From a virus (taxonomy: Duplodnaviria; Heunggongvirae; Uroviricota; Caudoviricetes), in the IMG/VR virus record IMGVR_UViG_3300029722_000071, positions 1-9,516 of that record: a stretch of DNA of 9,516 bases, one strand, 5' to 3'. The translations under genes were made by a program, and so were the position numbers. The notes below the pieces were generated by a model. The model was not told the origin of the DNA and ran no database searches. It saw only the letters and a program-made list of their open reading frames with translations. Positions 1 to 7,851 of the stretch are shown in pieces (positions within the stretch are counted from its first letter, which is position 1; each line of letters starts with the position of its first letter).

Positions 1-19
1 CTAATGGCGGTATGTGATA

Positions 20-95
20 TGGTGGCCCTTGCTGGATTTGAACCAGCGACCTGGCGATTATGAGTCGCTCGCTCTCACCACTGAGCTAAAGGGCC
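20..95 (-). tRNA. tRNA with CAU anticodon, tRNA-Ile2 (lysidine-type, ileX/ileY/ileZ-like); elongator tRNA-Met not excluded
   Basis: Reverse complement of 20..95 is GGCCCTTTAGCTCAGTGGTGAGAGCGAGCGACTCATAATCGCCAGGTCGCTGGTTCAAATCCAGCAAGGGCCACCA (76 nt): 7-bp acceptor stem, D arm GCTC/GAGC, anticodon loop CTCATAA (anticodon CAT), T arm with GGTTCAAATCC, encoded CCA. Overall pattern matches E. coli tRNA-Ile2 as I recall it. Confidence 0.8.
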
Positions 96-135
96 GGGCG
101 CAGGATAATAACGGTACGTAACTAATCCTGCAATA

Positions 136-1194
136 TCATCCATTCTGACTGACTAAATCCTGTACTTCCCTGACCGTCTGCTCAAAACGTTCAGTCTCCA
201 GCTCAACGCCAGTTGCACGACGCCCCAGCGCCATCGCAGCTTTGACTGTCGAACCCGACCCCATGAAGAAATCTGCAACCAGGTCACCCGGACGACTGCT
301 CGCACTGATTATCTGCTGCAGCATTTCTGCCGGTTTTTCGCACGGATGTTTCCCGGGATAGTACTGCACCGGTTTATGCGTCCACACATCCGTGTACGGT
401 ACCTGCGCAGTTACGCCAAAATACCGCCGCAGATGCTTATATTCACTCTGCAGTTCCGCATACTGCCGGTTCAGTGAAGTATACGTCTCCAGCAGCTGGT
501 GGTGGGGCTTTTCCAGTTCACCGCGCTGATGCTTCTCTTCTGCCACCCGGGCAAACAGCGCCTGTAATTTCAGATAATCGCTTTCGTTCGGTAGCTGCCA
601 CTGACCGGCACTGAACCAGTGCGACACCATGTTTTTCTTTCCTGTGGCATCCACTATCTGTTTTGCCGTTATCCCCAGGGCAGCACGCGCATCACGAAAG
701 TAAGCAATCAGCGGAGCCATCACATGCTGTTTCAGTGCCCTGCCCTTCGCCTCATACCCGGCATCTTTCGGGCGATACGGCCCCTGATAATGTTCCGCGA
801 ACAGAATGCGCTCTGTGGCGGGGAAATACGCCCTCAGGCTTTCCTTGTTGCACCCGTTCCAGCGTCCGGACGGCTTCGCCCAGATAATATGGTTCAGCAC
901 ACTGAAGCGTTCACGCATCATGATTTCGATATCAGATGCCAGGCGATGGCCACAGAACAGGTAAAGACTTCCGGCAGGTTTCAGCACCCGCCAGAACTGC
1001 GCAAGACACTGGTCCAGCCATTTCAGGTAATCATCGTCGCCCTTCCACTGGTTATCCCAGCCCTCAGGCTTCACTTTAAAGTACGGCGGGTCCGTGACTA
1101 TCAGGTCAACAGAATTTTCGGGTAACGACCGGATAAATTCCAGGCAGTCGGCGTTGATTAACTCACAACTGGATATTTTTACAGTGTTAAACAT
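136..1194 (-). CDS. DNA methyltransferase, beta-class N6-adenine/N4-cytosine type (orphan; no adjacent restriction gene)
   Basis: 352-aa ORF with catalytic DPPY motif near the N-terminus (IVTDPPYF) and the SAM-binding FxGxG motif near the C-terminus (DFFMGSGST), the motif IV-before-motif I order of beta-class amino-MTases. ATG start at 1194. Target sequence cannot be inferred. Confidence 0.85.
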   Translation of the reverse strand: MFNTVKISSCELINADCLEFIRSLPENSVDLIVTDPPYFKVKPEGWDNQWKGDDDYLKWLDQCLAQFWRVLKPAGSLYLFCGHRLASDIEIMMRERFSVLNHIIWAKPSGRWNGCNKESLRAYFPATERILFAEHYQGPYRPKDAGYEAKGRALKQHVMAPLIAYFRDARAALGITAKQIVDATGKKNMVSHWFSAGQWQLPNESDYLKLQALFARVAEEKHQRGELEKPHHQLLETYTSLNRQYAELQSEYKHLRRYFGVTAQVPYTDVWTHKPVQYYPGKHPCEKPAEMLQQIISASSRPGDLVADFFMGSGSTVKAAMALGRRATGVELETERFEQTVREVQDLVSQNG

Positions 1195-1330
1195 GGATCA
1201 TTAAGCCTGTCTCTGATAGGCTCATTCTGCTTTTGCGCAAAGCAGTGGGCCTGAGGTTTGCTTGTGATCCGGACGCATGAGCAGATGGCTGGTGAGTGCC
1301 CCTAACACCCACCAGCCGCCCATTTACCAC

Positions 1331-1358
1331 AAATAAAAAAGCCTTCAGGACTGAAGGC
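1331..1358 (-). terminator. Rho-independent terminator for minus-strand transcripts
   Basis: Plus strand 1341..1358 gccttca-ggac-tgaaggc (7-bp stem, 4-nt loop) preceded by aaataaaaaa (1331..1340), so the minus-strand RNA has the hairpin followed by a U-run. Overlaps the stop codon of the 1345..1542 gene. Confidence 0.7.
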
Positions 1359-1542
1359 GTCTGTAACAACCGAACTGATAGTCTGCCAGCCCCGCCATAA
1401 CAAGCTGGGTCAGTATTAACTGACAGCGTTCGCGTGAAAGGTACGTATTCTGTGCAATCTCCCCGACTGTCGCCGGTTCGGTGACGCTTAATTCATTAAA
1501 CACCACTCTGGCGGTTTCGGTCATATCCTGCTGTTTCAGCAT
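1345..1542 (-). CDS. small winged-helix DNA-binding protein (65 aa), hypothetical; FaeA/PapI-like pattern possible
   Basis: Track ORF 1345..1665 shortened to the internal ATG at 1542 (MLKQQDMTETARVV...), which has an AGGGA Shine-Dalgarno about 7 nt upstream; the longer N-terminal extension runs through an upstream terminator hairpin. Sequence TVGEIAQNTYLSRERCQLILTQLVMAG looks like a helix-turn-helix/wing. Confidence 0.5.
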   Translation of the reverse strand: MLKQQDMTETARVVFNELSVTEPATVGEIAQNTYLSRERCQLILTQLVMAGLADYQFGCYRRLQS

Positions 1543-1663
1543 GTCTTTTTCCCTTTTCCGGTTAACGTGACACACCAATAACTCTTGTCGAAAAAGCCAG
1601 CAAGCTGAAAGAACGGTATTAATAACCACCAGCGAATTTATTGCGCTGCTGTATATTACGGAC

Positions 1664-1686
1664 ACAAAAAAACCACCTTCCGGTGG
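1664..1686 (-). terminator. Candidate intrinsic terminator (tR-prime-like) downstream of the Q-like gene
   Basis: Plus 1673..1686 ccacc-ttcc-ggtgg (5-bp GC stem, GGAA tetraloop on the minus strand) preceded by a 7-A run (1666..1672), giving a U7 tract after the hairpin on the minus-strand RNA. About 75 nt downstream of the Q-like stop. Confidence 0.5.
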
Positions 1687-1759
1687 CTTCCTTGTGCGAA
1701 AAAAACTTGCATTTCGCCTCGCGATACAGCCTTGCGAAGCTTATACGGATTGAAGCAGT

Positions 1760-2332
1760 TTATTGATCAGTTTGCAACATTTTTTTCTCTGTAACAAAAG
1801 CCATACGCATGGGGGCATGTAACATAAATTCAGATATCCCCAACCACTGATCAATTCGGCGTCTGCACGTAACCAACGTCCACTCAGGATGATCTGCATT
1901 TAACCTTTCGGCCATTTTCAGTTTGCTCATTCCCCGTCCTTCGTACCTTTGCCGGAGAATATTGATTAGTCCGGGATATTCCCCAAGCACCTCACTGATA
2001 ACGCGATCAATAATCAACGCCTCTGTGTCTGTACAATGTGACAACCAGCTCTTCTGCTTCCCTCTGGTCATATCCCGAAAAAATGCCTCAAGTTCCGGTT
2101 TTTCCAGCCCGGATTTCTTCATTCTGCGTAAAACCTCATTAACTGCTGTTTTCGTCAGCTTTTTCGAAACCAGTAACCGGTTAAACATATTTCCGGATTT
2201 ACCCCCACCGATATACGACCACCGCCCCCACATCCGTAATTTCCCCTGGATCCAGACTGCTTCCAGCGTGTTCAGGCGTAAATGTTCGCCGCTTTTGCCT
2301 GTAATTTCCGGATATATCATATTTACGCTCAC
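1760..2332 (-). CDS. putative late-gene antiterminator Q-like protein (190 aa); function assigned mainly by synteny
   Basis: Lies immediately downstream of rusA with a GTGA stop/start overlap, as Q does in phage 82/DLP12-type lambdoids, and is followed by a promoter-sized gap and a terminator. N-terminal WGRW motif resembles the WGAW of QuuD-type Q proteins as I recall them. No motif-level proof. Confidence 0.5.
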   Translation of the reverse strand: MSVNMIYPEITGKSGEHLRLNTLEAVWIQGKLRMWGRWSYIGGGKSGNMFNRLLVSKKLTKTAVNEVLRRMKKSGLEKPELEAFFRDMTRGKQKSWLSHCTDTEALIIDRVISEVLGEYPGLINILRQRYEGRGMSKLKMAERLNADHPEWTLVTCRRRIDQWLGISEFMLHAPMRMAFVTEKKMLQTDQ

Positions 2333-2694
2333 TCACTCTCAATTTTGTAAATCTTCACACCCAGCCGACCACCAAGAACAAGCTGACCACGTACAATATT
2401 GATTTCATCAAACTGCTCATCGTCCATTAACAACCCCGCATGCGTAAGCGCATCCAGCGGTGCTTTCAGAATATTGTCCAGGTCACGGCGGCGCTTATCC
2501 GGTGGTTCTGCAATAATTTTTATTGCCAACCGTCCGGACAGGCTTAATTTCAAGCGCTGCTGGCGAACAATAAGCGCCACTGCCCGGCGATAACGCTCCC
2601 CGGCTTTTGATACAAAATATGTGCTGCCACGGCGTCGCCAGTAAGTGTTCACCGTCGGCGGGTAAGGCAAAACAAATTCTATGCGTTCGGTCAT
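2329..2694 (-). CDS. rusA: RusA-family Holliday junction resolvase (crossover junction endodeoxyribonuclease)
   Basis: 121-aa product MTERIEFVLPYPPTVNTYWRRRG...PDKRRRDLDNILKAPLDALT...GGRL matches the E. coli RusA pattern (LPWPPS.N.Y, PDRRRRDLDN, GGRL). ATG at 2694 directly follows the upstream stop. Confidence 0.9.
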   Translation of the reverse strand: MTERIEFVLPYPPTVNTYWRRRGSTYFVSKAGERYRRAVALIVRQQRLKLSLSGRLAIKIIAEPPDKRRRDLDNILKAPLDALTHAGLLMDDEQFDEINIVRGQLVLGGRLGVKIYKIESE

Positions 2695-3759
2695 TTATGC
2701 TTTCCACTTCAGAACACCCGAATTTCTCGCGTGCATTAAAAAACGAATCAGCAACAACAGCTGACTGCCGTGTTTCTCTTCAAAATCTTTTACTCCGGCG
2801 TGTAGTTCGTTATGGCATTTACGGCACAGCGGAATAACAAACAAATCGTCAGCCTTTGTTCCCATCCCTCCCAGTCCATGACCAATGATGTGATGCGGAT
2901 CATCTGCCTGATTGCCACACGTCATGCATTTCTGCGTTTTTACCCAGCGCGTGTATACAGGCATCTCTTCCCGTTGTGGTTTCTGGCGCTGGAGATACTG
3001 AGCCGGAGATTCCGGATCAACGGCAATGCTGACCACCGTCTTTTCCTGTGGTGGGTTCTGTTGCTGGTGCTGGTGGACGTGAGGCGGTAGCGCAATATTT
3101 TTTGTGCGCTGCTTCAGTATGCTGGTGGCTGTCTGTTCTCCCGGTACGATGTCGCTCTCACTGTATACGGAGCGGATTTTTTTCACCGGTAATCCCAGTG
3201 AACGACGCAATACAGACTCCGGAAGCGCATCAGCCACCTGATTGCAGACCGCCCACCAGGATAATTCGGCCAGCGATAACTCCCTCTCCTGCGTACCGCT
3301 GATTGCGTGACGGATGACGTCAATCATCCATGCTGACAGGTTTTGATGAGCAAGTTGCCCGAGTGATTCGGATGTCTGGTCACGCAGCTGGTTGTCGCAG
3401 TGCCAGCACAACACCATCGCGCCGGTACCGTAACGATGTATGACGATTTCACTGTGATGATAGTCACCATGAGGCCACTGGCAGGATTTGACATGACGCA
3501 ACAGCCAGTCAGACAGTGCCCCAGCACCACCAGCAGCACGAATCACCCGATCATCGCTGAAAAATGGCAGTAATGATTTATCCTCCGCCAGCGGCTGGCG
3601 AACAGCAGGGACGACTCCGGACGGCAGATTACGCATGCTTTTCGGTTCCGGCTCCACCAGTACCCGGGTATTGTGGAATACCGGCATGGATTCACGGCCC
3701 GGCTTAACGATCACCAGCCCGAGTTCCGGTACCAGAACAGGTCGAAGTAATACCCGCAC
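2695..3759 (-). CDS. DUF968-family (YdfU-like) protein with C-terminal HNH-type zinc-finger nuclease motif
   Basis: 354-aa ORF; C-terminus CMTCGNQADDPHHIIGHGLGG...PLCRKCHNELH has the Cys pairs and His residues of an HNH zinc finger. GTG start at 3759 has a GGAGG Shine-Dalgarno 4 nt upstream. Same position relative to hok as ydfU in the K-12 Qin prophage. Confidence 0.75.
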   Translation of the reverse strand: MRVLLRPVLVPELGLVIVKPGRESMPVFHNTRVLVEPEPKSMRNLPSGVVPAVRQPLAEDKSLLPFFSDDRVIRAAGGAGALSDWLLRHVKSCQWPHGDYHHSEIVIHRYGTGAMVLCWHCDNQLRDQTSESLGQLAHQNLSAWMIDVIRHAISGTQERELSLAELSWWAVCNQVADALPESVLRRSLGLPVKKIRSVYSESDIVPGEQTATSILKQRTKNIALPPHVHQHQQQNPPQEKTVVSIAVDPESPAQYLQRQKPQREEMPVYTRWVKTQKCMTCGNQADDPHHIIGHGLGGMGTKADDLFVIPLCRKCHNELHAGVKDFEEKHGSQLLLLIRFLMHARNSGVLKWKA

Positions 3760-3760
3760 G

Positions 3761-4039
3761 TTACCTCCAGATGCGTTGCTGGAATGTGCGGGACGGACGC
3801 GGTGGGCGTTCAGAGTAAGGAAGCCTGACGGAGATTATCCAGTGACGATAATCGAGGCTGAGGGTTTTCCTAAACTCATACCCACGTCTGCGGTAGTTCT
3901 GAATCAGCCATTCGGCCTGTTCTTCAGTGCATGGGGCGTGCTGTAACCAGTCAGATTTGAATGCATGAGAACGCCGCCCGTGCCTGCTGGCAAAGACGGC
4001 TGAATTATCAGAATTGTATAATTTGGTATCGTGCGCCAT
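3761..4039 (-). CDS. hypothetical protein (92 aa); positional equivalent of rem in Qin-type prophages
   Basis: Track ORF 3761..4120 shortened to the ATG at 4039 (MAHDTKLYNSDNSAVF...), because the TTG-initiated extension overlaps the hok terminator U-tract. No recognisable motif. Confidence 0.5.
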   Translation of the reverse strand: MAHDTKLYNSDNSAVFASRHGRRSHAFKSDWLQHAPCTEEQAEWLIQNYRRRGYEFRKTLSLDYRHWIISVRLPYSERPPRPSRTFQQRIWR

Positions 4040-4110
4040 CGGTTGTCTCTGCTGGCGCAGCAGGTGCCAGTTGTTCAGGCTGGCGTGCGAATTGTAAACC
4101 AGAATGCCAG

Positions 4111-4138
4111 GAAAAAACAAAACCCGCCGAAGCGGGTT
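4111..4138 (-). terminator. Rho-independent terminator of the hok transcript
   Basis: Plus 4121..4138 aacccgc-cgaa-gcgggtt (7-bp stem, UUCG tetraloop on the minus strand) preceded by gaaaaaacaa, giving a U-rich tail on the minus-strand RNA. An additional 9-bp hairpin ggcgaggga/tccctcgcc lies at 4179..4200, where an fbi-like hok 3-prime element would be expected. Confidence 0.75.
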
Positions 4139-4206
4139 AAGTGCGGGTGCGTTGAGGATGCCTGACTCATCAGAGGTGGCGAGGGATTTCTCCCTCGCCA
4201 GGTCTC

Positions 4207-4362
4207 TTACTCCTCAGGTTCGTAAGCTGTGAAGACAGCGACCTCCGTCTGGCCGGTTCGGATTCGTACCTCGCAGAGGTCTTTCCTCGTTACCAGTGCC
4301 GTCACAATGACGGTAATACAGATGACGATCAGGGCGACTAACATCGCCTTTTGCTGCTTCAT
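4207..4362 (-). CDS. hokD: Hok/Gef-family type I toxin (51 aa), HokD/RelF-type
   Basis: Product MKQQKAMLVALIVICITVIVTALVTRKDLCEVRIRTGQTEVAVFTAYEPEE is nearly identical to E. coli K-12 HokD/RelF as I recall it. ATG at 4362 with AAGGAG Shine-Dalgarno; the track ORF extends in-frame to an upstream ATG at 4419. Confidence 0.9.
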   Translation of the reverse strand: MKQQKAMLVALIVICITVIVTALVTRKDLCEVRIRTGQTEVAVFTAYEPEE

Positions 4363-4409
4363 AGCCTGCTTCTCCTTGCCTTTCGGCGTGTAAGAGGCTA
4401 ACCTACATG

Positions 4410-4486
4410 TGACTAGCATGAAATTGGCCTCAGATTAATGTTAAGCGTCCTGCAAGACGCATAATGTTAACTGGGGCTTTTCTCTG
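4410..4486 (+). ncRNA. candidate Sok-like antisense RNA (approximate boundaries)
   Basis: Plus-strand region antisense to the hok leader around the upstream mok-like ATG: long-range stem gcctcag (4427..4433) / ctggggc (4471..4477) enclosing hairpin gcgtc-ctgcaa-gacgc (4445..4460), followed by uuuucucu. Position matches where sok lies in plasmid R1 hok/sok. Promoter not confidently located. Confidence 0.35.
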
Positions 4487-4535
4487 TCTGCCTTACGGTG
4501 GCATGCCCGAGGCAGACAGCCTCAAGCACCCGCAG

Positions 4536-4566
4536 CAATTCTACTTAACTCTCGCTTTACCGCAAA
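4536..4566 (-). promoter_or_regulatory. candidate sigma70 promoter of the hok mRNA
   Basis: On the minus strand: -35 TTGCGG (plus 4560..4565), 16-bp spacer, -10 TAGAAT (plus 4538..4543), about 7 nt before a 5-prime sequence GGUGCUUGAGGCUGUCUGCC that resembles the R1 hok mRNA 5-prime end as I recall it. Confidence 0.4.
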
Positions 4567-4577
4567 CCGTTTTTACC

Positions 4578-4599
4578 CGATATGGGAATTCCCATATCG
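4578..4599. promoter_or_regulatory. 22-bp perfect palindrome just upstream of the hok promoter; candidate protein-binding site
   Basis: cgatatgggaattcccatatcg is a perfect inverted repeat (11-bp arms, no spacer), about 12 bp upstream of the candidate -35. Not followed by a U-run on either strand, so not a terminator. Confidence 0.3.
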
Positions 4600-7125: not shown

Positions 7126-7851
7126 AGCGGCGCGGGAATCATTCCATCGCTTTACTTCTTCACGAATTACGTCAATGCACTCTTTCGAATCCATTAGGTA
7201 ATCTTCATCAAAAAGACGTTCCTGTTCGTTTTCTATCGCAACAATGATTGCTTCAACTAACTTTTGTGCCTGAGAACCACTTTCTAACTCTGCAATGCGC
7301 TTCTCTGCGGCTTCCAGATTCTCGCGCATATCGTCAACGTACTCGACCAGAGATCCGCCAGCAGGAATTTCGCATTCCTCGACCAGTTGGAAGTAGATAT
7401 CAGCTGCGGCCCGTGTGTTGCTATGCCTAGCGTCGCCCATCTCACCTTCACGAAGAGCATCGCGTTCGGCGGTAAGATTGGCTATTTTGCTGTCTTTGCC
7501 TTCCAGCTCAACGCGCAGCCTCCCAACCGTAAGCGCAATATCCTCGTTCTCCTGATCGCGGCTTTTGATGTATTGCAGGTTTCTTTCCCGTTCATCCAGC
7601 AGTGCCAGCACGGTAGCCGGGTTAGCCTCTGCTATGAATTCAGCGTTTGCATAAGCCTGAGCATCTGTTTCAACCAGGCAGTTAACGTGACATTCTGCAA
7701 TTACGCCACCGGGTTCTCCTTTCCATTTTTGACAAACAAAAACTCCTGTTAAATTGCCGTGTTGGTTAACAGATGTATGCCCTACGATGTAGCTTCCTTT
7801 AGTTGCTTTCTCTGCCTTTTCACGCAGTGCCTGATAGTTAATCTCGCTCAC
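7102..7851 (-). CDS. ead/Ea22-like coiled-coil protein (249 aa); family assignment tentative
   Basis: GTG start with GGAGG Shine-Dalgarno, overlapping the upstream stop (GTGA). N-terminus [17 protein letters not shown] and the segment [18 protein letters not shown] resemble prophage ead/Ea22-like proteins as I recall them; C-terminal ...AAGIRIKGE. Confidence 0.55.

Follow-up and report, generated by a model that had tools for sequence, protein, structure and literature searches.

The closest described counterparts of the locus studied here are Stx2 phages of the 933W/Sp5 type. In Stx2a phages a DNA methylase gene is followed by the tRNA genes ileZ, argN and argO, then by stx2AB, and then by nanS-p and the lysis cassette. 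The Stx2e phage phiP27 likewise has a methylase gene, ileZ, an Arg tRNA and then cargo, but in this phage ileZ is followed by argO (argN is degenerate and not annotated), stx2e comes next and ileZ carries one substitution in the D-loop. The region downstream of PR' has been described as an insertion site for morons, both sRNAs and stx2 (PMC4104026; Tree et al., 2014); this slot is bounded by the Q-controlled promoter region on one side and the lysis genes on the other, and is occupied by stx2 in Sp5 and by sRNAs in many prophages. The three tRNAs around stx2a have been listed as two tRNA-Arg and one 'tRNA-Met' (PMC7946995). An ileZ-type tRNA beside a moron slot is already known and is ordinary.

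Stx-phage-like arrangement of the window

The sequence analysed here (the window) is a 9516 nt stretch of viral DNA. The order of a Q gene, a methyltransferase gene and an ileZ-type tRNA had been put forward as the layout of Stx phages, and the comparison bears this out. Positions 1–1640 are 97–98% identical to many Stx2a phages with ileZ–argN–argO–stx2AB, and the tRNA follows the same DNA methylase with the same strand logic. Phages of the 933W/Sp5 type, such as Stx2a_1447 (AP012536.1), share 97.3% DNA identity with the window over positions 1–1400, and in these argN begins 9 nt after the gene named ileZ or tRNA-Ile; the identity to phiP27 over the same positions is 87%. The Q-type, methyltransferase and tRNA genes are all on the minus strand (Table 1) and lie in a prophage context in the nearest complete genome, as expected of the ileZ–argN–argO cassette of lambdoid or Stx-type prophages.

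Two features set the window or its nearest relatives apart from the Stx2 phages. In the latter, stx2AB follows argO, whereas the nearest relatives of the window have copies of STnc100 or a TerB and DUF3927 gene pair in that place. The Q protein of the Stx2 phages is a Phage_antitermQ protein of 117–127 residues, whereas that of the window is of the DUF1133 type; it is read as a Q-type antiterminator because it also passes the threshold of the Phage_antitermQ model (32.4 bits; cut-off 26). The homology to Stx2a phages starts at about position 1640, just downstream of the tR'-like hairpin (1686–1673). On this sequence comparison there is a mosaic junction at about 1640–1690, with Q and all of the DNA upstream derived from a different lambdoid backbone. 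The small ORF between the Q-type and methyltransferase genes is conserved in Stx2 phages and had no Pfam match. Among the 98 IMG/VR contigs with an identical tRNA and enough upstream sequence, the tRNA is preceded by this methyltransferase in 48.

Table 1. Features of the window, numbered from its first letter.
Feature	Position	Strand	Evidence
First 10 nt of the 5' end (CCGCCATTAG) of argN (tRNA-Arg, TCG) or of an argN remnant, cut by the window edge	1..10	minus	Relatives
Spacer between ileZ and argN, 9 nt	11..19	minus	Direct reading of the sequence; alignment with relatives
ileZ-type tRNA gene (tRNA-Ile2, CAT; lysidine presumed, reads AUA)	20..95	minus	ARAGORN; Rfam; alignment with ileX; phage and RefSeq annotation
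Spacer between the methyltransferase stop and ileZ, 40 nt, with a sigma-70-like motif (candidate promoter)	96..135	minus	IMG/VR variants
N6/N4 DNA methyltransferase, 352 aa	136..1194	minus	Pfam PF01555, E = 6.7e-44; annotated as DNA methylase in Stx2 phages
Intrinsic-terminator-like hairpin and T run, after the 65-aa ORF	1341..1358	minus	Terminator scan
65-aa ORF, function not assigned	1345..1542	minus	Hypothetical protein in L001 and L003
Terminator-like hairpin CCACCggaaGGTGG and T7 (tR'-like)	1673..1686 (coordinates from a scan that lists the complementary strand)	minus	Reading of the sequence; some 75 nt past the Q stop codon
Candidate Q-type late antiterminator, DUF1133 family, 186 aa	1760..2320	minus	Pfam DUF1133, E = 3.8e-104
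RusA gene	2329–2694	minus	Pfam
DUF968 gene	2695–3759	minus	Pfam
Complete hok/sok-type type I toxin–antitoxin locus	4207–4531	minus	hokD-like 51-aa ORF (PF01848) and sok RNA (Rfam, 117.6 bits)

The window differs from its relatives (designated by L numbers) at a few further points. Single-nucleotide differences at 400 (T) and 7180 (C) are synonymous and were absent from the approximately 25 close relatives retrieved; a 140 nt pattern including the one at 400 had no match in the GTDB representative genomes or in IMG/VR. A DUF551 gene that seemed broken in L003 and intact in the window was rejected as a difference, as the gene can be translated without an internal stop in both. In strain S1-CAM-02-A (L004:14743–17148) an ISEc10 element of the IS21 family interrupts an ead/Ea22-like gene at window positions 7731–7737; the matches on its two sides share 7 bp of the window, which is consistent with a target-site duplication.

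The tRNA gene at the window edge

The original prediction placed a tRNA at positions 1–95. ARAGORN finds a single tRNA in the window, with the anticodon CAT, and the Rfam tRNA model matches it over its full length (1–71 of 71; 72.5 bits, E = 9e-15). The tRNA itself is therefore present, well beyond what chance would give, but its true extent is 20–95. The gene is 76 nt long, forms a canonical cloverleaf and encodes its CCA end (22–20). Minimum-free-energy folding of the lone tRNA gave no cloverleaf, which is usual for tRNAs, and the covariance model was thus relied on for the fold. As had been stated, the tRNA has the same orientation as the operon, on the strand of the methyltransferase and Q-type genes, and its 5' end faces the prophage genes, the nearest of which is the methyltransferase gene 40 nt away.

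The bases between this gene and the edge also have counterparts in the relatives. The sequence CCGCCATTAG (10–1, minus strand) is identical to the 5' end of argN in all relatives inspected, where argN was annotated or called by ARAGORN in L001, L003, L009, L010, L013 and L016. It also heads the degenerate argN copies of phiP27, Dog168 and L012, so these bases are assigned to argN or to a remnant of it.

Identity and integrity of the tRNA

A CAT anticodon can be read in two ways, and the annotation of related sequences is divided accordingly. Taken literally it indicates an elongator tRNA-Met, the label given by ARAGORN because the anticodon alone is read, and 'tRNA-Met' is also the annotation in many Stx2a phage records and in PMC7946995. 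The body of the tRNA argues against this label. The gene is identical to ileX of E. coli K-12 at 68 of 76 positions (89.5%), compared with 52 of 77 (67.5%) for metT and metU, and it is on this basis placed in the tRNA-Ile2 class. The acceptor stem has C4–G69 and C5–G68, as in ileX, and not the U4, A5 and U68, A69 of tRNA-Met. The alignments to ileX and to the Rfam family show that U12–A23, C29–G41 and A73 are retained as well. Together with C4–G69 and C5–G68, these elements reportedly direct lysidine formation and charging with isoleucine, according to the literature on TilS and IleRS (Ikeuchi 2005; Nureki 1994). In RefSeq genomes the identical gene is a tRNA-Ile according to PGAP, a pipeline that works with isotype models, and the curated records of Stx phages name it ileZ. 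We therefore consider it very unlikely that the gene encodes an elongator tRNA-Met. As judged from its sequence, the gene at 20–95 is of the lysidine-dependent tRNA-Ile2 type and corresponds to the gene called 'ileZ' in Stx phages. The host TilS presumably introduces lysidine into its CAU anticodon, so that the tRNA would read the rare isoleucine codon AUA.

The resemblance to the host gene extends beyond the tRNA body. Both genes encode a CAT anticodon within 76 nt, share C4–G69 and C5–G68 and have a −10-like hexamer 9–10 nt before the mature 5' end. The phage gene differs from ileX by eight substitutions, including a compensated U6–A67 pair, and in its surroundings: ileX stands alone on the chromosome and has a terminator of its own, whereas the phage gene is the first in a cassette of several tRNAs within a late operon.

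We also considered whether the gene might be a functionless remnant in a decaying prophage. Its Arg partners do decay, as seen in the 90 bp fusion of argN and argO in L020, the degenerate argN and argO of L012 and the missing argN of phiP27 and Dog168. The ileZ gene, by contrast, remains intact and keeps both its canonical cloverleaf and its CCA; apart from the 1 nt in phiP27 it is invariant among the contexts compared, across lineages in which the flanks are 84–87% identical or unrelated, and exact copies are found in more than 119 viral contigs. A remnant is accordingly highly improbable, and the reading as an intact tRNA-Ile2 gene is preferred.

The partners of the tRNA were surveyed in 113 IMG/VR contigs with an identical ileZ: 57 have both argN and argO and 27 have argO alone. 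A set of Lys-UUU, Thr-UGU and Gly-UCC tRNAs follows the identical ileZ in 15 IMG/VR contigs, where it replaces the two Arg tRNAs. Among the close relatives, both tRNA-Arg(UCG) and tRNA-Arg(UCU) are present in L003, L004/L007, L009 and L010, whereas the closest, L020, has the fusion.

Location within the prophage

Many temperate phages integrate into tRNA genes, and some Stx2a prophages insert at argW (PMC4587872). A tRNA at the edge of the window could on these grounds be a chromosomal gene serving as attB, with the window edge as the junction between prophage and chromosome; it would then be expected next to the integrase or to core genes. The relatives of the window show otherwise. The nearest complete genome, that of strain DETEC-S792 (L003), has 13 mismatches to the 9516 bp of the window, an identity of 99.86% over its full length. 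Its tRNA cluster lies in the interior of the prophage, between the methyltransferase gene and the nanS-p and lysis genes. The integrase adjoins the host gene rspB about 18 kb away, and on the other side of the tRNAs there are more than 19 kb of phage genes, among them holin, lysozyme, terminase, capsid and tail genes.

The remaining relatives also have phage DNA on both sides of the tRNAs, so that the DNA past the tRNA (argN, argO, sRNA, nanS-p, holin, lysozyme and terminase genes) is that of a phage in every one of them. None of these relatives has a core chromosomal flank with a duplicated att site. It is the 5' end of the tRNA, and not the 3' end, that faces the phage genes of the window. 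Positions 1–135 are present in 3057 of 5426 complete E. coli genomes, with up to 12 copies per genome; identical copies also occur in isolated phage genomes, and the window-edge segment is found in hundreds of phage records. An attachment site can thus be dismissed almost entirely, and the tRNA is phage-borne, as originally proposed.

The probable cargo slot beyond position 1

The relatives allow the contents of the flank to be predicted. L020, the best match among the draft contigs, ends 635 bp past window position 1. It has two mismatches to the window and continues with a 90 bp deletion that fuses argN and argO, one STnc100 copy and the start of nanS-p before the contig ends. In L009 (four mismatches), L004/L007 (five mismatches and the ISEc10 insertion) and L003 (13 mismatches), argN and argO are followed by two tandem STnc100 copies and nanS-p. 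L010/L017 (five mismatches over 8.5 kb, 99.94%) has argN, argO, TerB and DUF3927 genes, one STnc100 copy and nanS-p. The deletion in L020 (15736–15830) has its junction in a short GGTTCGA microhomology, where the 5' portion of argN now runs into the T-arm and 3' portion of argO, so that neither Arg tRNA survives intact; it may be genuine or may have arisen in the assembly of this draft contig.

The tandem STnc100 sRNAs of L003 (19094–19306 and 19502–19710; 147 and 122 bits) lie where Stx2 phages have stx2AB. The homology between L003 and Stx2a phages continues through argO and about 35 nt further, breaks exactly at the start of the stx cassette and resumes in the sRNA region between stxB and nanS-p. 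The anti-sRNAs AsxR and AgvB were expected in the slot; the Rfam search of it returned STnc100 only, on the operon strand. In this the relatives of the window differ from the moron site of Tree et al. (2014), although the position of the slot is the same.

The contents of the slot vary among close relatives. The TerB (143 aa) and DUF3927 (54 aa) genes are found at L010:11523–12115 and also in L008, L014, L015, L017 and L019. Because relatives equally close to the window differ in whether this pair is present or absent, the exchange of cargo must have been very recent. An identical 352-aa methyltransferase precedes slots that contain sRNAs only, TerB and DUF3927, stx2 (L016) or a pair of genes for Stx2A-like and LT-IIB-like proteins (L012). 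A broader survey covered 92 IMG/VR contigs with an identical tRNA and at least 1.5 kb of downstream sequence, in which stxAB was sought within 4 kb. Seven carry stxA and stxB, 22 carry TerB and DUF3927 and about 27 carry a gene for an IraM anti-adapter; the rest have mostly NanS-p and/or holin only, and seven match none of the queries. Given these varied contents, and in agreement with PMC4104026, the slot after the tRNAs is, on the sequence comparisons, a genuine and actively exchanged cargo site.

The original prediction also pointed to possible toxin genes beyond position 1. A toxin operon in the flank, either stx2 or the Stx2A-like/LT-IIB-like pair, would make this a toxin-converting prophage, and it would fit the 97–98% identity of positions 1–1640 to Stx2a phages and the identical methyltransferase and ileZ that precede toxin genes in L016 and L012. 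However, the toxin-bearing sequences are more distant relatives: the stx carriers are L016 and L001, and the match to the window is 92% over 1–4578 for L016 and extends over 1–1620 only for L012. None of the relatives at least 99.86% identical to the window (L020, L009, L004/L007, L010/L017 and L003) has stx or another toxin gene in the slot, and stxAB is present in only seven of the 92 surveyed contigs. The lineage of the window is a stx-free relative of Stx2 phages, and a toxin in its flank is therefore unlikely; we consider it quite improbable. The flank of the window most likely consists of argN and argO or their remnant, one or two STnc100 copies with or without TerB and DUF3927, and then nanS-p and the lysis genes; stx is most likely absent. 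The cargo site with further tRNAs that had been anticipated is thus present in the relatives, but the toxin is not. With that exception, the earlier interpretation of a phage-borne tRNA in a Stx-phage layout next to a cargo site is supported in all three parts.

A hybrid toxin operon in one relative

The slot of L012 (11380–12698; GCA_050595645.1, ABZCYR010000002.1) contains a chimeric AB5-type operon in the place of stx, after the same methyltransferase and ileZ. The A subunit, encoded by the first gene, is a Stx2A-like ribosome-inactivating protein (RIP) of 306 residues that is 72% identical to Stx2A and diverges at the extreme C-terminus. The B subunit (123 residues) belongs to the LT-II family (PF06453; E = 1e-24 to the LT-IIa B chain in the PDB) and not to the Shiga-toxin B subunits; exact copies of it are found in 108 contigs. 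ATA and AGA codons are very frequent in the operon. A megablast search of 5426 complete E. coli genomes and 50 697 phage records gave no match to the operon, and no description of a Stx2A-like subunit paired with an LT-II-type B subunit was found in the literature searched, so that the hybrid operon is apparently undescribed. As it lies outside the window it leaves the verdict on the tRNA unchanged. The more useful by-products of this analysis concern the slot, with its recent exchange of cargo and the hybrid toxin pair, and not the tRNA.

Proposed expression of the tRNA cassette

Two terminator-like sites lie between the Q-type gene and the tRNAs, and read-through into the tRNAs would for this reason need antitermination by Q. 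The spacer directly upstream of ileZ also contains a sigma-70-like motif, which reads TTGCAG (133→128), 17 nt, TATTAT (110→105) and 9 nt to the 5' end of the tRNA. Each of the 39 distinct upstream variants (from 117 IMG/VR contigs) preserves the pattern TTGnnn, 16 or 17 nt, TAT(T/C)AT and 9 or 10 nt, even though the spacers and the DNA upstream, be it the methylase, Q and a terminator, or other DNA, are unrelated. The homology between otherwise unrelated contexts begins exactly at the motif. In the host, TATAAT stands 10 nt ahead of the 5' end of ileX. A consensus promoter scan of positions 1–2400 returned no sigma-70 site, and the motif matches the consensus at only eight of 12 positions. The motif is probably the tRNA cassette's own promoter, a suggestion based on its conservation and position; part of this conservation could reflect shared ancestry or the needs of 5' processing.

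A bolder proposal, which we regard as possible but somewhat short of probable, is that the ileZ cassette is a self-promoted and independently mobile module that supplies rare-codon tRNAs constitutively in uninduced lysogens, the motif marking the border of a hot-spot for cargo swapping. If so, an uninduced prophage would reshape the translation by its host of genes rich in AUA, AGA and AGG, most of which are horizontally acquired. The motif would then be the upstream border of the hot-spot at which stx, TerB, IraM, sRNAs and the Stx2A-like/LT-IIB-like pair are swapped.

Proposed role of the cassette

That a tRNA cassette supports the translation of phage and cargo genes is a long-standing idea. 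In the prophage genes of L003, AGA and AGG together amount to 10.7–13.7 per 1000 codons, compared with 1.7 in eight flanking host genes, and CGA and CGG are enriched in this prophage as well; stx2AB has 36.8 ATA and 14.7 AGA codons per 1000. The idea fits the cassette, as its anticodons, CAU, UCG and UCU, match exactly the enriched codons, and the tRNAs probably help to translate AUA- and AGA-rich cargo.

Taken together, these results make it very probable that the gene at 20–95 is the first gene of an ileZ–argN–argO cassette in the late operon of lambdoid Stx-phage-type prophages of E. coli, with the role, expression and flank proposed here. Such cassettes follow Q and its terminators, with the DNA methyltransferase gene also intervening in this window, and lie ahead of the variable moron slot, which leads on to nanS-p and the lysis genes. 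The CAU anticodon of ileZ, once modified to lysidine by TilS, would read AUA, while the two Arg tRNAs that follow would read CGA and CGG (UCG) and AGA and AGG (UCU). The three tRNAs would in this way raise the supply for codons that are used far more by phage and cargo genes than by host genes. Transcription would come from Q-antiterminated read-through, probably supplemented by a small promoter directly upstream of ileZ. In lambdoid prophages, an ileZ-type tRNA after Q and a methylase gene is a reliable flag for the moron slot of the late operon, where Shiga toxin or other cargo is carried.
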